Positions 1 through 17,881 of a stretch of 32,000 nucleotides of DNA are shown piece after piece. A program made the translations under genes and the position numbers. The notes below the pieces were generated by a model that did not search any database, had not been told where the DNA came from, and saw only the letters and a program-made list of their open reading frames with translations. The stretch is taken from assembly GCF_000025925.1 (NCBI RefSeq), contig NC_014033.1, positions 630,001 to 662,000 on the forward strand, read 5' to 3'. Source of the DNA: Xylanibacter ruminicola 23 (GTDB lineage Bacteria > Bacteroidota > Bacteroidia > Bacteroidales > Bacteroidaceae). Every line of letters begins with the position of its first letter. The first letter of the stretch is position 1.

Positions 1-687
1 TTAGGTAATTTACTGTGTCCCCTTGAAAGATATGACAGTAATCTTGACTATGAGCTTTCGACACTTTTCGACGAGAACACAATTACGTACGAGCCGCTTT
101 CTCGCTTTGTATGTATGATGTATATCATAGAACATGCTGGTAAATGCCAAGCTGTGAGCCAGAATTTACTAGAATTGTTAAAGATGGTGGGAGTACGTTC
201 AAATCCTCTATACTTTGAACCTAAGGTAGAAGAATCTTCAGTTCACGAATCTTATCATTTGGACCAGATTCACAATATTCTTAAGAATAGTGATAAAGTT
301 AATTATTTATTAAAGCACATTGACACATCTACCGACTTATACGTGGCAATTAATAATTTTACATCGATGTTGGTTGATGAAAAAATCGCAGGCAATCTAA
401 CACATCAATTTATTAAATTCTTACGAAATGACATTTCCAACCATTGGATTGGGGAATACAATTCTGTGATGTCGAAGTATTCTTCTTATGAAGGGGACAT
501 GCTAGTACGTCTATCATATGCTATGTCAGTTTCTAAAATGGTGAGCTATGACAAGTTGCGGCAAGAAACCGTAAACAGAGTTGATACATCGATAAATCAC
601 ATTCAGGAAAAACGTAGTGAAATTGTTGATACTATTGAAGGATTTCAAGACAGATTTATACCCTATTGGATCACGACATTTTGGTGA
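1..687 (+). CDS. hypothetical protein, 5'-truncated by the window edge (first visible gene of the AT-rich operon)
   Basis: Frame +1 has no stop from nt 1 to TGA 685-687, so the listed ORF (ATG 115) probably continues upstream of the window. Its AT-rich composition matches the downstream genes. I recognise no motif. Confidence 0.55.
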   Translation, partial: LGNLLCPLERYDSNLDYELSTLFDENTITYEPLSRFVCMMYIIEHAGKCQAVSQNLLELLKMVGVRSNPLYFEPKVEESSVHESYHLDQIHNILKNSDKVNYLLKHIDTSTDLYVAINNFTSMLVDEKIAGNLTHQFIKFLRNDISNHWIGEYNSVMSKYSSYEGDMLVRLSYAMSVSKMVSYDKLRQETVNRVDTSINHIQEKRSEIVDTIEGFQDRFIPYWITTFW

Positions 688-730
688 ACCATTAGCTGGT
701 TATATTCAATTATTACAAAGAATAATATCA

Positions 731-1300
731 ATGTGTAAATTGATCAAGCAGGAATTGGAAGATGATTCAGCAAGCCTATCTACATATTTGATTTTGGAAA
801 CTCTCTCATGGAGAGTTGAAAACATGAAAACCTCTATTAATACATTGTGTGGACAATTAAAGGATATTGCTGAACGCATCTCGCGTAAAAGAACTGAAAT
901 TCGGACAAAATATCAAGTACCAATTGATGCGCTTCTCGAAAACCAATGGGTGTCTTTGTTGATAAATGACTGTGCCCCGATAGGTACTATTAAACCACCG
1001 TTTGATAACGATATTCTATGGAAAAAATATGCATGGAAGATTGGATCCTCAGACAAAATGAAATATATCATGTTTGAAATGAATCCCTCTCCCAAAGACA
1101 AGGAAGCATACTTTAAGTTTGAAGATATAGAATCCATTCGTAAAACAATAGAGTCTGTTTATACAGATTTGTGTAACTCGGCATATGTTCCAATACATAA
1201 TTTGTGCAAAGAGTCACTTAGTCGCGTACAGAATTACACAACTTTGCAAACCTATATAGAGAATCTCATAAATAATAAACAAGATGATACAGATAGATAA
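731..1300 (+). CDS. hypothetical protein (start uncertain; ORF is open from GTG 617)
   Basis: The track ORF 617..1300 starts at a GTG that overlaps the previous ORF by 71 nt. The first in-frame ATG is 731 (MCKLIKQ...). The stop at 1298-1300 overlaps the next gene's ATG (1284) by 17 nt. I recognise no motif. This could instead be the distal half of one frameshifted gene. Confidence 0.5.
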   Translation: MCKLIKQELEDDSASLSTYLILETLSWRVENMKTSINTLCGQLKDIAERISRKRTEIRTKYQVPIDALLENQWVSLLINDCAPIGTIKPPFDNDILWKKYAWKIGSSDKMKYIMFEMNPSPKDKEAYFKFEDIESIRKTIESVYTDLCNSAYVPIHNLCKESLSRVQNYTTLQTYIENLINNKQDDTDR

Positions 1301-2828
1301 ATACTCAAAAAAATACAAGATTGCTTTAGAACGACGGAAAAGTCCTCAGTTCGTCTCAATGCTTGACTCCGAGCTAAAAAGTTCGGAATGGGTAGCACAG
1401 CTGGCAGCTTGCCAATTGTCATTAGACAACATTACTAAGGCTGCGGATTTTGAGACAAAAGAAAATGCGATCAAAAGCTTGTTCAATCAGTTGTATGAGA
1501 AGATTACTGCTCCTGGTTTGGATGCATTTATTGGATGGATTGGTAGTTTGACCACATCAAAAAACGGAGAAAACATAAAAGCATTTAAGAAATTCTTAAA
1601 GGACAACTATGACAGCTATGCTGATGATATAGAAAAAATATTATCTGCGAAGGAAGTAGTATCCAAGATTGACGAAAAAAGCATCTTCGGTAAACTAATT
1701 TCTAATTTTGGAAACAAAATCAAGAAAATAGTTACTGAATTCATTGATAACAACACGTTTGAAAATGAAATAGATGGATTGCTAAAACAATTGAAGAATG
1801 AATATGAGGGTGTCTCGAGTATATCTGAACTTAACTATACTTCAGTAAAGGACCTGTATACTGCCGAACAAAAACAAGATAACACCATTGACTTTTATAG
1901 TGACATATTTGAACAGGCAAGAAAGAAGTTTCAATCTATGGATGTTCAAAAAGGTGAAGACAAAAACACCAATTATTTCACTATAATACGCAATCGTGTT
2001 ACTTCATTAACCAAATCAATATCATATTTGGTAAATAGCGGCGTGGCAAAGAATAATGATATGAACATCAAAGCATTATTCCTAAAATTCCAAAAAGAAA
2101 TGCCTATAGTTGAGGACGACTATCTTCAATCTCTTAAAGAATTTATAACAAAGGATTGGGAGAGCTTTCTAATAAAATATGAAACAATAAAGACCTTTTA
2201 TTCGTCTCCGATTTTAAATATCCCATCATCAAATTATGATGGTCTTAAAAGTGGTTCCAATATAAGCAATCTTATACTCAATTATACAAAGTTGTATAAT
2301 GAAGGATCTATAAGAATAGTTCCTTCTATATCAGCTTCTGACATGAAAAATCAGCTTGCCAAGAAGGCAAAGAGTATAAAAGACATGAACGATGAAGCTG
2401 CAAAAATCATGCAATCGGTAAATGAGGAATTTACTGACTTTATTGAAAAATATGAAAATCAGAAAGAAATGTTGGAGAAATCAACTGATAATGATGCCAG
2501 CCTTAAGGACAACTACGATTCCATATATGGTCAAGATGGAAGCTTGGACAATCTTAGGAACGGAATAACCGAATGCCTCTCTGATGGATGTAATTTTTTT
2601 AACACTTTAGCTAACCAAAGTATATTCCAAATGATCGAACTAATGAAAACAACAACAGAAAAGTTCGAGGAAACATTAAAACTTACCGGTTTGCAAGCTC
2701 CGATGGAATGGTTAGACTCTTTGCCAGATTTGATGAACTTAACAGAGTCTGATATAGACGAAAAGAAGATAAAATTGTTACTAAGCAAGGGCTTGATTAA
2801 GTTGGAAATTAAGAAAACTTATAACTGA
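1284..2828 (+). CDS. hypothetical 514-aa K/E/N-rich, probably alpha-helical protein
   Basis: Long uninterrupted ORF starting at ATG 1284. It overlaps the upstream gene, and its stop lies 1 nt before the next ATG (2830). There is no signal peptide and no catalytic motif I can recognise. Confidence 0.7.
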   Translation: MIQIDKYSKKYKIALERRKSPQFVSMLDSELKSSEWVAQLAACQLSLDNITKAADFETKENAIKSLFNQLYEKITAPGLDAFIGWIGSLTTSKNGENIKAFKKFLKDNYDSYADDIEKILSAKEVVSKIDEKSIFGKLISNFGNKIKKIVTEFIDNNTFENEIDGLLKQLKNEYEGVSSISELNYTSVKDLYTAEQKQDNTIDFYSDIFEQARKKFQSMDVQKGEDKNTNYFTIIRNRVTSLTKSISYLVNSGVAKNNDMNIKALFLKFQKEMPIVEDDYLQSLKEFITKDWESFLIKYETIKTFYSSPILNIPSSNYDGLKSGSNISNLILNYTKLYNEGSIRIVPSISASDMKNQLAKKAKSIKDMNDEAAKIMQSVNEEFTDFIEKYENQKEMLEKSTDNDASLKDNYDSIYGQDGSLDNLRNGITECLSDGCNFFNTLANQSIFQMIELMKTTTEKFEETLKLTGLQAPMEWLDSLPDLMNLTESDIDEKKIKLLLSKGLIKLEIKKTYN

Positions 2829-2829
2829 T

Positions 2830-4566
2830 ATGAAACAATTACATAAAGATATTATTGGTGCTCTAGATAGATTGAGAGTAAGCAGTCTTTACGTTCATAA
2901 CGCAGAATTACCTGGCGCTCATTTTTCGATACCAGAATTAAATGGAAGAAAGGTATATCTTGTAGAGACACTGGCTGTAATCAATGCCATAGTTGAACGT
3001 GGAACTATGATGTTGTACGGTGGACATGGTGGAGGCAAAACGACTCTTTCAAAGTATTTGGGGCAAATATTCATGCATTATTCAAAAGATAAAATTGAAG
3101 ACTGCATATTACGAGGACACCCGCAGTTAACAGAAGAAAAAATTCTTGGCAGCCTAGATTTTGCGCAAATGATGAATCCTGAATTAATCAAAGAGGGCAA
3201 AGTAAAGGTTATATGGAACGACTTTGTTGATTCCTCTTGGAAAATAATAGATGAAATTAATCGTCTTTCTCCATATGCTCAGAATATATTGTTGTCTCTT
3301 TTGGCAGAAGGTTCTGTAAAATATCATAATCAATCACGTACACTTGCTCCTTTTACTTTATTCGCAACTATGAATCCAAAGGACAACGCAAACTTTGAGC
3401 TGTCTTTGCCTTTTTTAGACCGATTCGCATTGGCTCTGCCCATTACAATGCCAGACTATGATAGTTTTAGTACAATTGGACGCAAGGACAAAATTGACAA
3501 CAACTTAAATGAATGGTTAAGGGACTTTTCTTTGCAGGATGTTCAAGAAGAAGTAAAGAATATTCACTATACAGATGAAGCAGAACTATTTGTTAACTTT
3601 TTAATAGATTCATATCGACTCTGCTGTCGCATATCAAAAGAAACTAACGAGTCTCTTTCTGTTGATAAGACGTTATGTAAAGGATGTCATATGGATGCCA
3701 AAGATAAAGTATGCTGTAAAATAAAGCATCCTTTAAGCGTACGCGTAAAAGAAGATCTTTATAGATACGGAAAAGCTATAGCGTGGTTCTTGGGAGATGA
3801 AAAAGTAGAAGTAAAACATATTGAGATACTGGCTCCTTATCTGATTTGGCATCGATCTGAATTAAGTAAAAAATTTTGCGATGAGCTGGTCCAAAACAAA
3901 TGTGAACACAGTTCTTTACGTACTGATAATGATGTTTTAGTTGACATACAGCTTGATGCCACAAAAGACATTATAAAGCTTATAAGAAAAGAATTTGACG
4001 GAGTCAAGAGCTTCTTGTTTGAATTTGAAGATGTAAAAAAGGGGAAATTGTCAGAAGAAGAATTCGACAAGTTAATTTCCGCATCAGAAAGTTCCCAGAA
4101 TAACTTTTTAATATTAACGTCGGAAATTGTTCCAATCCTTAAGGGGAAATACGCTCCCGTATATAATGAGATTTGTAAATACAATGATAAGATATCCATT
4201 ACAACTGACTTTAAAACGCTGAAATCTATCAAAGATGAATTGGCATATCGATATGATATTCCAAACAGAGCCTACATATTTGAGCAAATAGTTCAACGGT
4301 TAAGAGTATTACAATCTAACGAATATACATTTACTTTGACGGACGAATCAATTAAATCTGTGGATTCTATCCGTAATTTAGTTCTTAAAGTTCAGCCAAA
4401 TTTCCCCAAAAGGGTCACAATGTTTAAGAAAATTCCTTTGATGGATTTCAATAATGATGAATGTGAGCTTGCAATAAAATGTATATCCCAAGGTAAATGG
4501 GAATTCTATTTTAAAGGAGAAGAAACAAATATAATTTATAAGATCCTGTCTGACATAAATGGATAA
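2830..4566 (+). CDS. MoxR-family AAA+ ATPase with a Cys-rich insert and a long C-terminal extension (578 aa)
   Basis: Walker A is YGGHGGGKTT (nt ~3019-3045). Walker B is IIDEINR (DE at 3250-3255), followed by LSPYAQNILLSLLAEGSV, which resembles the MoxR 'DEINRA..Q.ALLEAM' signature. Sensor-1-like FATMNP and LPFLDRFAL are also present. The cluster CC-x16-CxxC-x8-CC lies at nt 3622-3717. Confidence 0.85.
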   Translation: MKQLHKDIIGALDRLRVSSLYVHNAELPGAHFSIPELNGRKVYLVETLAVINAIVERGTMMLYGGHGGGKTTLSKYLGQIFMHYSKDKIEDCILRGHPQLTEEKILGSLDFAQMMNPELIKEGKVKVIWNDFVDSSWKIIDEINRLSPYAQNILLSLLAEGSVKYHNQSRTLAPFTLFATMNPKDNANFELSLPFLDRFALALPITMPDYDSFSTIGRKDKIDNNLNEWLRDFSLQDVQEEVKNIHYTDEAELFVNFLIDSYRLCCRISKETNESLSVDKTLCKGCHMDAKDKVCCKIKHPLSVRVKEDLYRYGKAIAWFLGDEKVEVKHIEILAPYLIWHRSELSKKFCDELVQNKCEHSSLRTDNDVLVDIQLDATKDIIKLIRKEFDGVKSFLFEFEDVKKGKLSEEEFDKLISASESSQNNFLILTSEIVPILKGKYAPVYNEICKYNDKISITTDFKTLKSIKDELAYRYDIPNRAYIFEQIVQRLRVLQSNEYTFTLTDESIKSVDSIRNLVLKVQPNFPKRVTMFKKIPLMDFNNDECELAIKCISQGKWEFYFKGEETNIIYKILSDING

Positions 4567-6394
4567 TTCTGCCATTTACTTACAAAAAGCATTAGATGCT
4601 GTAGAGTGTGTATTTCAATGTGAATATAAAAATTCACTTGGTATACCTATGCCTGAAATTAAACTATTATTGGCTGACGATAAACATTATACGACAGGTG
4701 AGTATTATATCACAATTGGTAACACATGGCAAATACATCTGAATTTTGGGAAATTGCCTGTTAGTTTTGCTGAATTTCAAGAAGAGGTTAAGGTTCTTAC
4801 ACGTCATGAAATAGGTCATTACATGTGCTGCCCATTTGACACGATTACATACTTTCGTATGCTCAAATGCATTTTGTCAGTTTATGACAAAGAATTCAAG
4901 CATCTTGATTTGCAAAGAATTAATAGTATCTGTGGAGATATTGCAAATCAAGCAGCAGATATTATTGTTGATTCTAGAAATTTCTATTTCAACCCAAAAG
5001 AAACTGTAAAAAGCGAAATTAATTGGATACTAAAATGCGGAGGTATTGAAAATTCTCCTAGACATTCCAAACTCATGTTTCTAATGAAGGAGGCCATTTG
5101 GAAAACAAGTCTGAATATTTATGAAAGTGATACTGAGTTAAAAGATATTGTAAGTTCTCTAGCAAACACGTTTCTTGAAGATGGCATAGAAAACAAATCT
5201 TTATTTACACATAAAACGGAGGAATATGCCCGAGTATTCTTTCAATTGTTTATAAAAGATAAAAATAAGAATATAAAAGAATCCAACGATCAGCAGCAGA
5301 GTGGTCAGCAGCAGAGTGGTCAGCAGCAGAGTGGTCAGCAGCAGAGTGGTCAGCAGCAGAGTGGTCAGCAGCAGAGTGGTCAGCGGCAGAGTGGTCAGCA
5401 GCAGAATGGTCAGCGGCAGAGTGGTCAGCAGCAGAATGGTCAGCAGCAGAATGGTCAGCAGCAGAGCGAACAAGAAATCAATGGTTCAATGTCGGTTAAG
5501 CCAAAAGACGGTGACAAAGATGGAAATGCTTTAATCTTTTTAGACCCAGAAAAAGTAAAGGATGCATTGGAACAGCTAGCTTCTGAGACAACCATAAGTG
5601 AATTTGAAAGAATCTTGTCTGCTGCCGGTTTAAACCAATTGTCAGAAAAAGACAAAGAAAAATTATGGTTTTCAGTTCAAAGTGCAGGAATGATTCCCAT
5701 AGAAGAAGTCGGCAATGAAGGCGCAAAAGACAATTATACATATCCAACGAATTGGAGAATAGGAGATTCTATAGCAGATTTGGATATGATGTTAACATAT
5801 TCTACTGCACCAAAATTAATTCCTGGAATTACGACGAAAAAATGGGAACAATCTGTAAACGAGTATTTTGGAGTTGAACAAAGACAAAAGGATGCGTTGC
5901 TAGTTGTAGATACTTCTGGAAGTATGGGAGCTGTTTCCAGAGAAACAGACAATATGCATCAAGCTGTTCTCGCAGCTTTTGGTATCCTTAATTATTTTGA
6001 ATCACGCAAAGGTAAGATAGCCCTTGTAGAATTCTCTGATAATGTTAAAGAGTATATATCATGGACAAATGAGTATGAGAGAATACGCGATAAATTGCTT
6101 ACAAATGGAAGCGGCGGTACTCAATTTCCAATTCATAGTATTCGAGAAATTCTGGAACAATCAAAGAACGAATTGATTACAGTCATTATAACAGACGGAG
6201 AGTTAGGCAACATAAATGAGTCAGTAACTTTTTTTGAAGATTACCTAAATGATGAAAACAAATTATATGTTTTTCTATTGGGTAATAGTAAATCTTGTCG
6301 AGGATATGATAGGCTCGCAGAAATTGGAGCTAAGGTTTATCAAGCTGACAATGCGATAGATTTCTGCGACATGGTTATGGATGATCTAAATTAA
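4559..6394 (+). CDS. fusion protein: N-terminal HExxH metallopeptidase-like domain, Gln-rich repeat linker, C-terminal von Willebrand factor A (MIDAS) domain (DUF2201/COG3864-like)
   Basis: HEIGH at nt 4805-4819. The MIDAS motif DTSGS is at 5909-5923 (LLVVDTSGSMG), followed by GSGGTQ and VIITDGE. The ATG overlaps the MoxR stop (ATGGATAA), which implies translational coupling. Pairing of a MoxR ATPase with a vWA partner is a well established architecture. Confidence 0.8.
   Translation: MDNSAIYLQKALDAVECVFQCEYKNSLGIPMPEIKLLLADDKHYTTGEYYITIGNTWQIHLNFGKLPVSFAEFQEEVKVLTRHEIGHYMCCPFDTITYFRMLKCILSVYDKEFKHLDLQRINSICGDIANQAADIIVDSRNFYFNPKETVKSEINWILKCGGIENSPRHSKLMFLMKEAIWKTSLNIYESDTELKDIVSSLANTFLEDGIENKSLFTHKTEEYARVFFQLFIKDKNKNIKESNDQQQSGQQQSGQQQSGQQQSGQQQSGQQQSGQRQSGQQQNGQRQSGQQQNGQQQNGQQQSEQEINGSMSVKPKDGDKDGNALIFLDPEKVKDALEQLASETTISEFERILSAAGLNQLSEKDKEKLWFSVQSAGMIPIEEVGNEGAKDNYTYPTNWRIGDSIADLDMMLTYSTAPKLIPGITTKKWEQSVNEYFGVEQRQKDALLVVDTSGSMGAVSRETDNMHQAVLAAFGILNYFESRKGKIALVEFSDNVKEYISWTNEYERIRDKLLTNGSGGTQFPIHSIREILEQSKNELITVIITDGELGNINESVTFFEDYLNDENKLYVFLLGNSKSCRGYDRLAEIGAKVYQADNAIDFCDMVMDDLN
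5291..5470. repeat. in-frame 15-bp tandem repeat, ~12 copies (CAGCAGCAGAGTGGT and variants), encoding (QQSGQ)n
   Basis: Counted directly. There are six identical copies at 5291-5380, then variants CAGCGGCAGAGTGGT and CAGCAGCAGAATGGT, and a degenerate last unit at 5456-5470. Confidence 0.95.
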
Positions 6395-6397
6395 AAT

Positions 6398-6721
6398 ATG
6401 AGAAATTGTAATGCTATTTTTCTGACACTTGCACTCTCACTATTAATAATAGCATGTGAGAATAAGTCAAGGCAAACAGAACCGGTTGCCTGTGATAATC
6501 CGTCTGTTCTTGAGCAGCATACCCCTGATACAACATCCTCTATTCAAGACAAGTTGCCCAAAACTGAAACTTCTACAAGTATATCATTTTCCTCTTCGCA
6601 CTTTCATAAGTTAAGCAGTTACGATATTATGCGTGGCTTCGACCCTGCATCTGAGGACGACATGGGCGATAACGGCATAAGTCGGTATATGGAGAATAAT
6701 GATGATAAAGGTTGGGATTAA
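6398..6721 (+). CDS. small putative lipoprotein (107 aa)
   Basis: The N-terminus MRNCNAIFLTLALSLLIIAC-ENKS has a hydrophobic signal followed by a lipobox-like Cys. The ATG lies 3 nt after the vWA gene stop. The rest of the protein is S/T/D-rich and low complexity. Confidence 0.6.
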   Translation: MRNCNAIFLTLALSLLIIACENKSRQTEPVACDNPSVLEQHTPDTTSSIQDKLPKTETSTSISFSSSHFHKLSSYDIMRGFDPASEDDMGDNGISRYMENNDDKGWD

Positions 6722-6743
6722 TGATTATTTGGAAGAAATATTG

Positions 6744-6751
6744 TAACTTTG
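6744..6751 (+). promoter_or_regulatory. Bacteroidota -7 promoter motif TAACTTTG upstream of the AlbA_2 gene
   Basis: Matches the TAnnTTTG consensus, 16 nt upstream of ATG 6767. Confidence 0.45.
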
Positions 6752-6766
6752 CAAAAGATATAAAAT

Positions 6767-8359
6767 ATGGCACTGGCAATAAATATAGAAGATCTACTGA
6801 ACAAGCAGAAGATAGAGTCCAATAGGATTGAGTTCAAGAAAGGTTGGAATCCCGCAAGTATATACCATAGCGTGTGTGCTTTTGCCAATGATTTCGACGA
6901 TCTTGGTGGTGGATATATATTGGTTGGCGTAGATAGCGATGATGATACAGGGATGGCTATCCGTCCCGTCGTAGGTGTGCCGATAGAGAAAATTGACGGT
7001 ATTCTTCAGGATATGGTGAGCTATAACAACAAGATGTCACCGTATTATATGCCCAGGACAAGTGTTGAAGAGGTGGACGGAAAGCAGGTTCTGGTGATTT
7101 GGTGTCCTGCAGGCATCAACAGACCATACTCTGTACCTGAGAATGTGACTGCAAAGAATGGTAGCAAGGAGTATTTCTATATTCGTAGTGGTACGAGCAG
7201 CATCATTGCCAAGGGCGAGGTGCTAGACGAACTACGTGAATTGGCAAGTCGTGTACCGTTTGATGAAAGGGGGAATCCTGACATTAAAGTAGAGGATATA
7301 TCTACGTTGTTGCTTCGTGAGTATCTGGTTAAAGTAGGCAGTAAGCTGGCTAATGAGTTATACGAAAGACCACTGAGCGAGATTCTGGAGCAGATGGACT
7401 TGTATGTTGGTCCATCAGAAAACCGTATGCTGAGGAATGTTGCTGCAATGATGTTTTGCGAGAATCCAAGTAAGTTTTTCAAGCGGACACAGGTAGAAGT
7501 GGTTTTCTTCCCTGAAGGACGACTGGTAAATCCCAACAATCTCTATGAGGCTCCTGTCATCACAGGTTCCGTGACACAGATCATTGAGCGGACGTTGGAG
7601 TATCTGAATCGCATGGTGGTGATGCAATCCATCATTAAACCCAAGAATGACAACCACAGTATCAAGTTCTATACCTATCCTTACCAAGCATTGGAGGAAA
7701 GTATTACGAACTCGTTATATCATCGCGACTATCGGGAATGGGAGCCAGTGGTGATTACTGTCGAGCCGAAGGGTATTACCATTCAGAACGTTGGTGGGCC
7801 AGACCGCAGCATCCCAGTTGCTGACATCAATCGTGGAGAATTGCTTATCTCCAAACGTTATCGCAACCGTCGTTTGGGTGAATATCTGAAGGAATTGGAG
7901 TTGACCGAAGGACGAAGCACAGGTATTCCTACCATCCAGAATGTATTGAAGGCAAATGGCTCGCCTCGCGCTGTCGTCGTTACGGATGAAGAGCGCACCT
8001 TCTTCCGCATCACTATTCCCTGTCATGAAGCAGCGGGCAATGTTATTGCTGACATAGCGACAAGAGAGAAGATAAAGGATAGTTCACAGGAAATGGTCAA
8101 GAACATCCCTGATGTCCTGAAGGATGTCCTAAAAGATGTCCAGAAAGATGTCCTAAAAGAACTATCTGAAAGACAGATAGTTATACTTGAATTGATATGC
8201 ACATCACCAGAGGCAACTCTAATAGAAATGTCCAGAAAGCTTAAGGTGTCCGACAAGACTATTCAACGAGAGTTTACAGCTATTAGGAAACTTGGTATCA
8301 ATATTGAGCGCCAAAATGGACGCAAGGAAGGTAAATGGGTTATCAAAATTGGGAAATAG
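6767..8359 (+). CDS. AlbA_2 (Schlafen-like, 'divergent AAA') + HATPase_c_4 + C-terminal HTH protein; often annotated as ATP-binding protein or RecG-like putative DNA-binding protein
   Basis: The N-terminus ...ESNRIEFKKGW...CAFAND..GGYILVGV is typical of AlbA_2. NSLYHRDY and ...TEGRSTGIPTI are typical of the HATPase_c_4 region. The C-terminal LSERQIVILELI...TLIEMSRKLKVSDKTIQREF looks like a winged-helix/HTH. Confidence 0.8.
   Translation: MALAINIEDLLNKQKIESNRIEFKKGWNPASIYHSVCAFANDFDDLGGGYILVGVDSDDDTGMAIRPVVGVPIEKIDGILQDMVSYNNKMSPYYMPRTSVEEVDGKQVLVIWCPAGINRPYSVPENVTAKNGSKEYFYIRSGTSSIIAKGEVLDELRELASRVPFDERGNPDIKVEDISTLLLREYLVKVGSKLANELYERPLSEILEQMDLYVGPSENRMLRNVAAMMFCENPSKFFKRTQVEVVFFPEGRLVNPNNLYEAPVITGSVTQIIERTLEYLNRMVVMQSIIKPKNDNHSIKFYTYPYQALEESITNSLYHRDYREWEPVVITVEPKGITIQNVGGPDRSIPVADINRGELLISKRYRNRRLGEYLKELELTEGRSTGIPTIQNVLKANGSPRAVVVTDEERTFFRITIPCHEAAGNVIADIATREKIKDSSQEMVKNIPDVLKDVLKDVQKDVLKELSERQIVILELICTSPEATLIEMSRKLKVSDKTIQREFTAIRKLGINIERQNGRKEGKWVIKIGK
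8111..8158. repeat. 4 x 12-bp in-frame tandem repeat (GATGTCCTGAAG-like) encoding DVLK-DVLK-DVQK-DVLK
   Basis: Read directly. It lies between the HATPase_c_4 region and the HTH of the 6767-8359 gene. Confidence 0.9.
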
Positions 8360-8362
8360 GAA

Positions 8363-9346
8363 ATGGAGTTTAGTGAGGAACAGCTTAAAAAACTGTCAGT
8401 TCTATTTGAGGAAAAAGTTGAAAAAGAGCTAACAATCGAAGAGGTTCGAAAGTTTGTTCAGTTGGATACAATTGACGATTGCAAACAGTATTTACGGGTG
8501 ATGCTTGATTTCTTCTTCGAAGTCTTCAAATCACCAGAAGGGCGCAAAGCCATGTCATCTCTCGAAAATGAAAGAAACATTTGGCTTCAAACAATCTTTA
8601 GTAAGAGTTGCCATTTCCTATATTTGTTAGATGGTGTGGGGTATAATAATGGTTCCAACCATCTCAATCCTATTATAGACCCATCTGTATTGTTTACTAT
8701 TGCAAGAAGGATATATGAGTCAGTAATTGCTTTTGAGCTATTATTTGTCATCCCAAGCACAGAAGACGAACAAACAATTCTTTATAATCTTTTCATGGCT
8801 CAAGGACTAACAGAGAGATTAAATGATTTTGACGAAGAAATGCGTAGCCACAATCCCCAAAGAGTTGCAGAAGAACAGCAGAACATTGATAACTGCATGA
8901 ATGAGATAGAAAAAACGGAACTCTATTCGAACCTCAGTCAACAGACAAAGAATCAAATAAAAAATGCTTTTGGTATAAGATACCGATATGTGTTTGAGGA
9001 AGACAACACTATGAAACGAGTCAGTTTCGAAGATGCATATAAATATCTTCGAATCAAAAAGGATCTTCTCAAAAACACTTATTCATTCTTCAGTCTTCAT
9101 GGCCATCCATCATATTTGGCACTTATTCAATTTCATGATGCTTTCAAAAGAGAAAGTCGGGCAGATTTAACAATTATGGCTCCACATGCGACTCAATGTG
9201 TCCTGGCATTTATGAGCATTTTCATAGTAGATTATATGAAACTGGTTCCTGAGATTAAAGCCATGTATGATAAACTTGAAGAGCCAAGACGATTTGCAAT
9301 TGGCATGTACGAGGATGCAATGAAAGGTGAGAAGAAGTTTCAATAA
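8363..9346 (+). CDS. hypothetical 327-aa protein, coupled to the AlbA_2 gene
   Basis: The ATG lies 3 nt after the upstream stop. The ORF is AT-rich and uninterrupted. I recognise no catalytic or HEPN-type Rx4-6H motif. Confidence 0.65.
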   Translation: MEFSEEQLKKLSVLFEEKVEKELTIEEVRKFVQLDTIDDCKQYLRVMLDFFFEVFKSPEGRKAMSSLENERNIWLQTIFSKSCHFLYLLDGVGYNNGSNHLNPIIDPSVLFTIARRIYESVIAFELLFVIPSTEDEQTILYNLFMAQGLTERLNDFDEEMRSHNPQRVAEEQQNIDNCMNEIEKTELYSNLSQQTKNQIKNAFGIRYRYVFEEDNTMKRVSFEDAYKYLRIKKDLLKNTYSFFSLHGHPSYLALIQFHDAFKRESRADLTIMAPHATQCVLAFMSIFIVDYMKLVPEIKAMYDKLEEPRRFAIGMYEDAMKGEKKFQ

Positions 9347-9438
9347 AGAAATGATTCTCTGTGCAAGTATGCGAATATTTTTGGAAGTATCCATATTATA
9401 GTTTGATTGTTAGCTAATCTTGGTGGTATCTAATCTCC

Positions 9439-9493
9439 AAATTTGATGGAACAATTTAAAAATGTTCCATCAATGTTCCATCAAAATTTGATG
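9439..9493. repeat. compound direct/inverted repeat at the island-core junction
   Basis: AAATTTGATG occurs at 9439-9448 and 9484-9493. TTGATGGAACA (9443-9453) is the reverse complement of TGTTCCATCAA, which occurs twice in tandem (9463-9473 and 9473-9483). A third ATTTGATGT lies at 9675-9683, on the other side of the tRNA. Confidence 0.7.
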
Positions 9494-9494
9494 T

Positions 9495-9540
9495 GTTTGA
9501 AAACAGAAATCCCTGCAAGTGCTTGACTTACAGGGATTTG
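9495..9540 (-). terminator. intrinsic terminator after tRNA-His (possibly bidirectional)
   Basis: There is a 9-bp stem, AAATCCCTG (9507-9515) with CAGGGATTT (9531-9539), plus inner CAAG/CTTG pairing. On the minus strand it is followed by CTGTTTTC, and on the plus strand by GTTTT. Confidence 0.6.
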
Positions 9541-9548
9541 TTTTGGAG

Positions 9549-9623
9549 GGTGCCCGGTGGGACTCGAACCCACGACATTCAGAACCACAATCTGACGCTC
9601 TAACCAACTGAACTACGGGCACC
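9549..9623 (-). tRNA. tRNA-His (anticodon GUG) with genome-encoded G-1; no encoded CCA
   Basis: The reverse complement folds as G-1 / GUGCCCG / UA / GUUC-AGUUGGUUA-GAGC / G / UCAGA-UUGUGGU-UCUGA / AUGUC / GUGGG-UUCGAGU-CCCAC / CGGGCAC / C73. The anticodon loop UUGUGGU gives GUG. An extra 5' G opposite C73 is the bacterial tRNA-His hallmark. Confidence 0.93.
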
Positions 9624-9641
9624 ATTTCTGAATTGCGGGTG

Positions 9642-9649
9642 CAAAGGTA
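9642..9649 (-). promoter_or_regulatory. -7 promoter motif TACCTTTG (minus strand) for tRNA-His
   Basis: The plus strand reads CAAAGGTA, 19 nt upstream of the tRNA 5' end. Confidence 0.45.
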
Positions 9650-9776
9650 CGGAGTTTTTTTTAATCTACCAAACATTTGATGTAGTTTTTTATAAAAATT
9701 TAGTTTTTGGTTAAAAATGTATAACAAAGAGAGGCCGCTCGCGCGCGTTTCAATTATTCTTTGTAATTTTGCAGCC

Positions 9777-10562
9777 GTGAAGATAAAAGAAGTGCTGAGC
9801 GCCCTTGAACGTTTCGCGCCTCTGCCCTTGCAGGAAAGTTGGGATAATGCTGGCTTGCAACTGGGACTGACAGAGACGGAGGTTTCAGGGGCATTATTGT
9901 GTCTGGACGTGAACGAACGTATCGTTGACGAGGCTATGGCGAAGGGTTGCAATCTGATTGTAAGCCACCATCCGCTGTTGTTTCGTGGTTTGAAAACCAT
10001 CAGCGATCTGACCGACGTTCAGCGCACCGTGATGCGTGCTATTAAGCAGGGCATAGCGGTGGTATCGATGCACACCAATATGGATAATGCCCGTGGCGGC
10101 GTGAACTTTAAGATAGCCCAGAAGCTGGGTCTGCAGAATGTGGCGTTTTTCGCGCAGAAGCAGGTTGACGGCATTGAGGCTGGCAGTGGGGTAGTGGGCG
10201 AGTTGCCCGAAGCTATGGCTGCCGACGACTTTATTATTGGTGTGAAGAATGCCTTTGGTGTGGAGTGTGCGATGTGCAACGAGTTGCTGCGCCGCCCCAT
10301 TAAGCGCGTGGCTATCTGCGGTGGTGCGGGCGATTTCCTGCTCGACGAGGCCATTAAGAATCAGGCCGATGCATTTATTACTGGCGAGATGCACTACCAT
10401 CAGTACTTTGGCTATGAGCAGCAGATACAGATTTGCGTGATAGGTCACTATCAGAGCGAACAGTACACTGCCGAAATCTTTGAGGAGATTATCCAGAAGG
10501 AGTGCCCCGGCGTAAAAACCTGCATAGCCGAAACATGTACGAATCCAATATTGTATATTTAA
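9777..10562 (+). CDS. Nif3-like dinuclear metal centre protein (YbgI / GTP cyclohydrolase 1 type 2 family)
   Basis: (V/M)KIKEVLSALERFAPLPLQESWDNAGLQLG...VSHHPLLF is the canonical Nif3 N-terminus. I place the start at GTG 9777 rather than the upstream ATG 9717, whose 20 extra residues look non-native. A TAATTTTG motif at 9764-9771 is only 5 nt from the GTG, so the start and promoter remain uncertain. Confidence 0.85.
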   Translation: MKIKEVLSALERFAPLPLQESWDNAGLQLGLTETEVSGALLCLDVNERIVDEAMAKGCNLIVSHHPLLFRGLKTISDLTDVQRTVMRAIKQGIAVVSMHTNMDNARGGVNFKIAQKLGLQNVAFFAQKQVDGIEAGSGVVGELPEAMAADDFIIGVKNAFGVECAMCNELLRRPIKRVAICGGAGDFLLDEAIKNQADAFITGEMHYHQYFGYEQQIQICVIGHYQSEQYTAEIFEEIIQKECPGVKTCIAETCTNPILYI

Positions 10563-17266: not shown

Positions 17267-17881
17267 TTAGTGACAGTGTCCGCAACCGCAACCACAGCCA
17301 TCGTCGTGGTGGTGATGCTCGTGATCGCAGCCTTCGTGATTGCAGCCCTCGTGGTCGCCTCCGCAGCCACCACAACCGCCGCATCCACCTGTCATATGCT
17401 TAATCAGGTGCTGAATCTCCTCGTCGGTAGCCTCGCGGTTCTCAATCACCTTACCCTTGAAGTTCAGGGTTTTGCCAGCCAATGGGTGGTTGGTATCAAC
17501 GGTAACACCGTCTTCCTCGATCTTTACCACCTTAGCCATGAACTGATGGTCCTCGTTGTCCATCAGGGTGATAACAGCGCCCTCGAAGATGTTGTCGTGA
17601 TCGAAATGACCGTTAACAGTAAATACCTCGCGGCTAACCTTGTGAACGCCCTCAGTTACATACTCGCCGAATGCCTGAACTGGAGCCAGCTCGAAATCAA
17701 AGTCGCTGCCCTTTTCAAGACCCTTTACCTTCTCCTCGAAAGCATCGAGTGCTACGCTGAATCCGGTGATAAACTCAAATGGACGGTCATCGCCAGTCTG
17801 CTCCTCAAGCTCACTCTTGCCATCCTTCAGGCTGTACAACTGGTATACAACCGACATGAATCTGTTTTTTGTCTCTTCCAT
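17267..17881 (-). CDS. slyD: FKBP-type peptidyl-prolyl isomerase SlyD with a Cys/His-rich metal-binding tail
   Basis: The FKBP/IF-domain layout shows in ...YQLY..DG..FEF..G....LDAFEEKV...HPLAGKTLNF. The C-terminus is GGCGGCGGCGGDHEGCNHEGCDHEHHHHDDGCGCGCGHCH. Confidence 0.85.
   Translation of the reverse strand: MEETKNRFMSVVYQLYSLKDGKSELEEQTGDDRPFEFITGFSVALDAFEEKVKGLEKGSDFDFELAPVQAFGEYVTEGVHKVSREVFTVNGHFDHDNIFEGAVITLMDNEDHQFMAKVVKIEEDGVTVDTNHPLAGKTLNFKGKVIENREATDEEIQHLIKHMTGGCGGCGGCGGDHEGCNHEGCDHEHHHHDDGCGCGCGHCH

Follow-up and report, generated by a model that had tools for sequence, protein, structure and literature searches.

A rare zincin-like and von Willebrand factor A protein family coupled to a long MoxR-class ATPase in a seven-gene island of Bacteroidota

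A gene of Xylanibacter ruminicola 23 raises the question of what a MoxR-class ATPase might do with a partner that looks like a peptidase. The gene lies at positions 4559-6394 of a 32,000-nucleotide stretch of DNA (contig NC_014033.1, positions 630,001 to 662,000; hereafter the window, in which all positions are counted from the first letter). A preliminary description, made from the letters alone, had proposed a single polypeptide with an HExxH peptidase-like head and a C-terminal von Willebrand factor A (vWA) domain bearing a metal ion-dependent adhesion site (MIDAS), encoded by a gene that overlaps that of a MoxR-class ATPase. This arrangement is borne out. The family to which the protein had been assigned, DUF2201/COG3864, is not the right one; from the comparisons described below, the protein represents a distinct, rare zincin-like + vWA family (the zincin-vWA family) that is locked to a long MoxR ATPase. 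A MoxR-controlled protease, as earlier proposed, still seems to be the best functional reading. All functional statements on the zincin-vWA protein and its operon are computational.

The open reading frame (ORF) starts with ATG, and its 611-residue product has the same sequence as WP_013064041.1 from Xylanibacter (Prevotella) ruminicola, a record named merely 'VWA domain-containing protein'. Read directly off the DNA, the HEIGH sequence corresponds to H83-H87 (positions 4805-4819), about 80 residues in, where it had been described. The MIDAS set in the C-terminal third is complete, with DTSGS at D451-S455 (positions 5909-5923), T521 in GSGGTQ (6119-6121) and D546 in ITDGE (6194-6196). Pfam VWA_2 matches residues 447-548 above its cutoff (E 1.2e-9, 39.2 bits against 27), and the five MIDAS residues are largely conserved across the family in an alignment down to 20% identity. 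The layout thus reads as a zincin-like head of about 240 residues, a Gln-rich tether, a middle region of about 130 residues without a Pfam match (residues ~315-440) and the C-terminal MIDAS vWA domain. The protein is probably cytoplasmic, because no N-terminal signal sequence was seen by eye. Scans of the 611-residue protein with Pfam, NCBIfam, PHROGs and PADLOC yielded nothing but the vWA domain, and a literature search found no paper on this family or on the seven-gene operon described below.

The tether, rich in Gln, Gly and Ser, links the peptidase-like head to the remaining domains. Within one 90% cluster, member lengths of 581, 586, 591, 596, 601 and 611 residues occur. Because near-identical strains differ by multiples of five residues, the tether length fits a pattern of in-frame repeat slippage. 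Homologues range from 556 to 676 residues, with the length variation falling within the tether, and the aligned distant members have unrelated linkers that are poorly conserved, short or of different composition.

With the 611-residue protein as query, a word-indexed search retrieved 585 clusters at E ≤ 0.001. Among the matches listed (the best 120 of the 585 clusters), identities are 54-97%, the sources are largely gut metagenomes, and the named ones include Phocaeicola vulgatus, Bacteroides fragilis and B. intestinalis. An exhaustive phmmer search of 1.84 billion representatives with residues 1-245 gave just 35 clusters (50% identity), which makes the head a small family. Taken by itself, HExxH is only a weak motif. 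In the alignment of the head down to 20% identity, the invariant columns are P32, I51, W57, H83, E84, H87, C91, P92, N130, D134 and W181, with Y88 and D138 nearly invariant. A motif census of 133 full-length members found HExxH, Cys-Pro at +8/+9 and NxxxDxxx[D/E] together in 132 of them, D94 in 129 and DxSxS in all 133. Since these motifs are kept so consistently, the HExxH of the family can be taken to go beyond chance. Its conservation among homologues, on which the earlier proposal had been made to depend, is thereby confirmed. That proposal had also left a choice between a real protease and a degenerate binding module. The catalytic-base Glu would be expected to drift in such a module, and its retention therefore favours an enzyme over a relic.

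The head has no Pfam match in the window protein or in 17 diverse family members. Searches of PDB sequences with the single protein and with the profile of the N-terminal domain returned only the vWA domain of a TROVE protein and noise. In phage and plasmid records, tblastn found no real match to the N-terminal domain, and the vWA part gave a single marginal match in phages. The family occurs once in 2.9 million viral contigs.

Residues 1-240 were modelled with AlphaFold2 from a 17-sequence alignment, and the model is confident (predicted local distance difference test, pLDDT, 89.4; predicted TM-score, pTM, 0.87). It opens with helix 4-22 and strands 33-36, 48-52 and 58-63, after which come helix 70-89, with the HExxH towards the C-terminal end, helix 95-112, helix 121-144 with N130, D134 and D138, and four more helices. 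A sheet that leads into the motif helix is the arrangement associated with zincins and serves them in substrate binding. The predicted head has both elements, namely the three strands and, after them, an α-helix that carries an HExxH conserved across homologues, and we read its fold as zincin-like. In BFVD, the best Foldseek match of the head model is an unnamed 393-residue phage protein (TMq 0.52, probability 1.0, E 0.019), followed by two phage 'VWFA domain' proteins (TMq 0.50 and 0.43); these top phage matches have probabilities of 0.89-1.0 and E values of 0.02-0.2. Behind these, at E 0.4-2, come SprT-like zincins together with a phage 'putative peptidase' and one IrrE-like protein; the SprT-like ones reach probabilities of 0.5-0.8 over 80-100 columns (E 0.5-1). 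Anthrax lethal factor appears in the PDB comparison at E about 3.

In the preliminary description, no obvious third zinc ligand had been seen, and a structure prediction had been proposed. The model supplies the sheet and the HExxH helix, and conservation yields candidates for the third ligand, namely the invariant C91 and D134, the nearly invariant D138, and D94. C91 lies four residues past H87, near the position of the invariant His of DUF2201_N. In gluzincins and aspzincins, the third ligand is located on the next long helix, as is D134.

We reject the membership in DUF2201/COG3864 that had been suggested. PF13203 and PF09967 do not match the 611-residue protein at E ≤ 0.1 or any of the 17 diverse members at E ≤ 1. 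The C-terminal domains of these proteins match VWA_2, VWA, DUF58 and VWA_CoxE, not PF09967. As a positive control, gp25 of phage G7C matches PF13203 with 186 bits. A DUF2201_N set of 798 proteins was collected with three bait sequences; the best 120, which were listed, all carry PF13203 (up to 62-68% identity), and the bait is therefore valid. When the head alignment was compared by hhalign with an alignment of 18 bona fide PF13203 proteins, just 13 columns around the HExxH were aligned, with a probability of 0.7%. A relaxed hhalign alignment is collinear and places N130-x3-D134 on the invariant WNxAxD of DUF2201_N, with a score of 17.6, which is at background level.

DUF2201 is better regarded as an architectural analogue, and the zincin-vWA family is possibly a very distant relative of it, not a member. 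In both, an N-terminal HExxH and a C-terminal vWA or vWA-like domain share one polypeptide, a helix bearing N-x3-D comes after the HExxH helix, and an AAA+/MoxR-type gene lies close upstream. In the phage example (N4/G7C), gp25 of G7C consists of DUF2201_N and DUF2201, and the ATPase gene gp24 is two genes upstream, separated from it by an HNH gene; in a bacterial DUF2201 locus (L032), an AAA_3/AAA_5 gene is likewise two genes upstream. A pair of MoxR and a protein with an N-terminal metallopeptidase and a vWA domain has also been described in jumbo phages (Iyer et al. 2021, PMC7824862). This common part order and kind of ATPase, the relaxed alignment that superposes the HExxH and the N-x3-D helix motif, and the weak structural likeness of the head to phage vWA proteins, its best structural neighbours, one of 393 residues beside the 391 of G7C gp25, would all suit a divergent DUF2201_N/DUF2201 member that works with its MoxR/AAA+ partner as those proteins do. 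We nevertheless consider such a member unlikely. Besides the profile misses and the hhalign result, the motifs differ in residues and spacing: the zincin-vWA proteins have HExxHYxxCPxD, about 42 residues and NxxADIIVD, with Cys-Pro after the HExxH, whereas DUF2201_N has HExxHxxxxH, with a His there, about 17 residues and WNxAxDxAINP. The zincin-vWA protein also differs in having an extra helix, the Gln-rich tether, the middle region of about 130 residues, a classical VWA_2 domain with a full MIDAS and an ATPase partner of about 570 residues instead of about 340. DUF2201_N is found in 604 phage records, whereas the zincin-vWA family belongs to cellular islands.

The ATPase partner matches AAA_5 (E 4e-12, 46.7 bits against a cutoff of 22) and AAA_3 (E 2.5e-6, 27.9 bits against 27) in Pfam, with GGHGGGKT as Walker A and IIDE as Walker B. 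Its AAA core spans residues ~55-215 and is followed by a C-terminal extension of about 360 residues, making 578 residues in total as against ~330-350 in typical MoxR proteins and in the DUF2201-associated ATPases compared here. The nested start that had been noted is present: the ATG of the zincin-vWA gene (4559) lies in ATGGATAA, the ATPase stop TAA is at 4564-4566, and the two genes overlap by 8 nucleotides. A start/stop overlap, of 8-38 nucleotides as the ORFs were called, also occurs in nine other Bacteroidota/Ignavibacteriales loci. Each of three distant homologues that were looked up (23-24% identity) is located directly downstream of a 549-566-residue AAA_5 ATPase, and a hidden Markov model of the Bacteroidota ATPases matches the ATPases of two archaeal-type loci at 1e-124 and 1e-117. 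Because the overlaps recur and the distant homologues adjoin long ATPases, orthologous ones in two cases, the long MoxR and zincin-vWA genes form one conserved unit, from Bacteroidota to archaeal-type contigs. As a separate observation, the ATPase extension contains a Cys/His cluster, CKGCHMDAKDKVCCKIKH (CKGCH...CCKIKH; window positions 3670-3740, residues ~283-300), which may be a metal-binding element.

In Bacteroidota, the pair closes an operon of seven genes. These encode, in order, a 139-residue MazF-fold protein, a 311-residue protein (g311), a 318-residue protein, a nucleoside triphosphatase (NTPase) of about 1180 residues (g1189), a protein of about 514 residues (g514), MoxR and the zincin-vWA protein, and an XRE-type helix-turn-helix (HTH) gene is often found ahead of them. 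The order is strictly syntenic in Bacteroides, Phocaeicola, Prevotella, Shivajiella, Maribellus and a metagenome-assembled genome (MAG) of Ignavibacteriales. The proteins besides MoxR and zincin-vWA stayed unassigned in searches of Pfam, PADLOC, PHROGs and PDB sequences, the MazF fold of gene 1 coming from Foldseek. Profile searches of the PDB with the 1189-, 514- and 139-residue proteins yielded nothing. For g514, the lone Pfam match is a sub-threshold TACC_C coiled-coil, and no PADLOC or PDB sequence match was found. The 311- and 318-residue proteins are not paralogues according to hhalign; weak CARF-type HTH matches of g311 are the sole PADLOC signals among the upstream operon genes.

The 139-residue product of gene 1, encoded upstream of the window (L006:834-1253 in a metagenomic locus 99.5% identical to it), is the most conserved operon protein. 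Its model (pLDDT 87) matches S. aureus MazF, E. coli MazF and CptN in Foldseek (probability 1.0, E 1.8e-4, TM 0.57-0.69), which gives it a predicted MazF/PemK fold; in Pfam, a single member shows a faint match to PF02452 (E 0.089). The sequence HPSVV...PGTSK echoes the MazF motif, RPxVV...PxT(T/S), with a His in place of the catalytic Arg of MazF. Gene 1 differs from MazF/PemK also in that no MazE-like partner is evident and in that it stands at the head of a seven-gene operon, not in a two-gene toxin-antitoxin pair.

The window begins within g1189, and this copy is split: frame 1 is open over 1-687 and is followed by an ORF at 617-1300 in a different frame. In tblastn, an intact 1175-residue homologue (L001) aligns as frame 1 (1-636) plus frame 2 (689-1270), and blastn against L006 reveals one extra A at 638/639, which causes the frameshift. 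The gene is either a pseudogene or affected by a sequencing error. In its intact form, the protein keeps both Walker motifs (A, GAFGIGKT; B, LLLIDEFE). Two identities considered for g1189 were dropped, namely an SMC-like protein, as its Walker B, at residue ~190, adjoins Walker A, and a BREX BrxC-like protein, to which no match was found. The 107-residue ORF behind the zincin-vWA gene is probably not core to the operon, because among the Bacteroidota loci compared it was detected just in the closest relatives, L006 and L013.

Two of the three distant homologues are on contigs with archaeal-type neighbours (PaREP1, an HVO_A0114-like protein). In these two divergent loci (L024:8296-17047 and L030:8310-16852), four genes that are conserved between them come after the long-MoxR + zincin-vWA pair and encode an AAA-lid protein of 272-315 residues, an SMC protein (SMC_N + hinge, ~1120 residues), a protein of ~180 residues and a winged HTH protein of ~150 residues. 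No similarity was detected between the accessory genes of the Bacteroidota and archaeal-type operons.

Restriction or other defence genes are frequent neighbours of the operon. In loci of the P. vulgatus type, it is flanked by type I restriction-modification, AAA_15/21 and Schlafen genes, and a Schlafen-type gene comes after the operon, beside the type I restriction-modification genes. In Shivajiella, the flanks contain GmrSD, a DNA methylase and a ResIII helicase, and in a Bacteroides MAG they contain genes of the conjugative-element type (ArdC-N / MPTase-PolyVal). In the window, the Schlafen-type ORF downstream matches PADLOC models associated with pAgo and SIR2 at ~1e-16. The G+C fraction is mostly 0.32-0.40 over positions 1-10000 (0.46 in one interval) and mostly 0.44-0.53 beyond (0.32 in one interval), so that the first ~10 kb looks like an island inserted at a tRNA gene. 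The features are collected in Table 1. Two side observations concern other ORFs of the window. A 12/24-base-pair tandem repeat at 8111-8160 within the Schlafen-type ORF encodes DVLKDVLKDVQKDVLKEL. An ORF of 204 residues on the minus strand (17267-17881), probably an ordinary housekeeping gene, encodes a Gly/Cys/His-rich tail, …GGCGGCGGCGGDHEGCNHEGCDHEHHHHDDGCGCGCGHCH, reminiscent of SlyD-type metal-binding tails.

Table 1. Features of the window around the zincin-vWA gene (positions in the window; aa, amino acids)
Feature	Position	Strand	Basis and remarks
g1189 homologue, 3' part	1..1300	+	~residue 755 to end; P-loop NTPase; tblastn
g514, 514-aa helical, fast-evolving protein	1284..2828	+	Syntenic in all loci, 21-36% identity
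Long MoxR-class AAA+ ATPase, 578 aa	2830..4566	+	AAA_5, AAA_3; Walker A/B
Zincin-like + vWA protein	4559..6394	+	611 aa; Pfam, alignment, motif census
N-terminal domain, aa 1-240	4559..5278	+	AlphaFold2 model, conservation; zincin-like reading
HExxH segment HEIGHYMCCPFD	4805..4840	+	H83, E84, H87 putative zinc ligands/catalytic base; Y88; invariant C91-P92; D94 mostly kept
NQAADIIVD	4946..4972	+	N130, D134 invariant, D138 nearly; helix 121-144; candidate third-ligand helix
(QQQSG)n tether	5290..5466	+	15-base-pair tandem repeat, 11.8 copies (Tandem Repeats Finder)
Middle region, aa ~315-440	5501..5878	+	Conserved; PGxTTKKW motif directly before vWA
vWA domain, complete MIDAS	5879..6391	+	D451-x-S453-x-S455, T521, D546; VWA_2
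107-aa ORF	6398..6721	+	Lipoprotein-like signal (…LLIIAC), directly after zincin-vWA gene
Schlafen/AlbA_2 + HATPase_c_4 + HTH protein	6767..8359	+	Pfam
DUF5677-like protein	8363..9346	+	Pfam
tRNA-His	9548..9622	-	Edge of low-G+C island

What could such a pair do? Our tentative answer, to which we give somewhat less than an even chance, is that the zincin-vWA protein and MoxR form a regulatory protease module, driven by ATP, within a new conflict system. In NorQ/NorD, the vWA domain docks at the pore of the MoxR hexamer, and the authors suggest that this binding mode is general (PMC9976466). The same docking is the likely physical basis here, and the vWA part would thus bind the MoxR hexamer at its pore. 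The head, judged from its invariant HExxH and zincin-like layout, would be a metallopeptidase on a flexible tether. ATP hydrolysis by MoxR would remodel a client protein or the zincin-vWA protein itself, and a substrate exposed or fed by MoxR would then be cut by the tethered metallopeptidase. The outcome would be an FtsH-like ATP-dependent protease split across two polypeptides. In Bacteroidota, the cut would act as the proteolytic switch of an abortive-infection-type conflict system, in which the P-loop NTPase and the fast-evolving helical g514 protein would serve as sensors of invasion, with the MazF-fold protein as the likely executioner.

FtsH is an AAA+ ATPase fused to an M41 HExxH zincin, and the likeness in combining an AAA+ motor with an HExxH metallopeptidase is one of analogy: here, two polypeptides would be joined through a vWA adaptor, the motor is of the MoxR clade as against the classical clade, there is no membrane anchor, and no sequence relation was detected. 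A further comparison is with the MoxR-vWA 'ternary' conflict systems of the VMAP, iSTAND, FtsH and beta-propeller types, whose variable effectors are fused C-terminally to the vWA domain; the iSTAND type occurs in Bacteroidetes, and peptidase effectors are recurrent (Kaur et al. 2020, PMC7159879). The present operon shares with them a MoxR + vWA core in a multi-gene, mobile, conflict-type neighbourhood. It differs in that the vWA domain comes last in the protein and the peptidase-like domain first, and in its third components, which are an NTPase of unassigned class, a MazF-fold protein and three unassigned proteins. None of the VMAP, iSTAND, FtsH or propeller types was recognised among the operon proteins in Pfam, PADLOC and PDB-sequence scans, in which no VMAP or iSTAND profiles were used. 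Unlike an inactive STAND protein, the g1189 NTPase keeps its Walker A and B motifs.

The pair also resembles the MoxR-vWA chaperone couples, such as NorQ/NorD, CbbQ/CbbO and RavA/ViaA, in which a MoxR-class ATPase gene and a MIDAS vWA gene are adjacent and translationally coupled. The output of those couples is cofactor insertion or remodelling, not proteolysis, and we know of none whose vWA partner has a peptidase-like domain. It is improbable, in our estimation, that the HExxH domain is a metal- or client-binding module and the pair a classical MoxR-vWA chaperone that inserts a metal or brings a large complex to maturity, namely the 1189-residue NTPase complex in Bacteroidota and an SMC complex in archaea. 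CbbQ/O, CoxD/E and the chelatases act as chaperones of this kind, both the MoxR and the zincin-vWA proteins have weak NCBIfam matches of the cobaltochelatase and BchD types, and the module is accompanied in either setting by a protein of >1100 residues, NTPase or SMC; the absence of a structural match to a solved peptidase points the same way, as does the behaviour of NorQ/NorD (PMC9976466). A pure metal-binding site, however, would not require the catalytic-base Glu that is invariant family-wide, the strand-sheet-plus-helix arrangement of the predicted model is the substrate-binding layout of zincins, and the setting in defence islands and mobile elements speaks against a housekeeping maturation factor.

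Eukaryotic CLCA proteins join an N-terminal HExxH zincin to a vWA domain and cleave themselves. By analogy, MoxR-controlled self-cleavage in or near the long, flexible and length-variable Gln-rich tether could release an active species, either the vWA part or the head. We give this little credence: a conserved cleavage site is hardly to be expected in so poorly conserved a tether, and the head has neither a sequence relation to CLCA nor a Pfam match. We hold it equally doubtful that the pair is an ancient, self-contained, separase-like ATP-dependent protease whose clients are giant NTPase complexes, in which regulated cleavage of a bridging subunit would open, unload or activate the SMC or 1189-residue NTPase complexes, and which Bacteroidota would have co-opted to arm a MazF-fold toxin within a new seven-gene system against phages.

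Returning to a MoxR-controlled protease within a conflict system, several points weigh against it. Characterised MoxR-vWA pairs are mostly chaperones that serve cofactor insertion and complex maturation, not proteases. The third metal ligand of the head is at the candidate stage. The profile of the N-terminal domain finds nothing for the head among PDB sequences, its model has no fold match in the PDB (best E 0.23, helical-repeat noise; Foldseek), and its BFVD matches all lie above E 0.01, suggestive but not significant. No PADLOC-DB v2 model matches any operon protein, those encoded in the window giving only chance-level matches, and a defence role is therefore suggested by context only. Even the context is mixed, as some flanks contain ordinary genes (L019, for example). 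The archaeal-type operon has an SMC gene and no MazF-like gene, and the core job of the module is therefore not necessarily defence. Finally, the copy in the window may be inactive, because its NTPase gene is frameshifted.

Should the head prove catalytic, the zincin-vWA family would represent a MoxR ATPase that is wired, in cellular genomes, to its own metalloprotease by way of a vWA adaptor, a mode of action that, as far as we know, has been demonstrated for no MoxR system. The association with an SMC operon on archaeal-type contigs hints at a wider role of the pair in handling large NTPase complexes. In Bacteroidota, the island is carried by common gut species, including Phocaeicola vulgatus, Bacteroides fragilis, B. 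intestinalis and Prevotella/Xylanibacter; five of its seven proteins have no family assignment, and none is in PADLOC. The seven-gene island thus offers a concrete candidate, open to testing, for a new system of anti-phage defence or abortive infection that is triggered by proteolysis.

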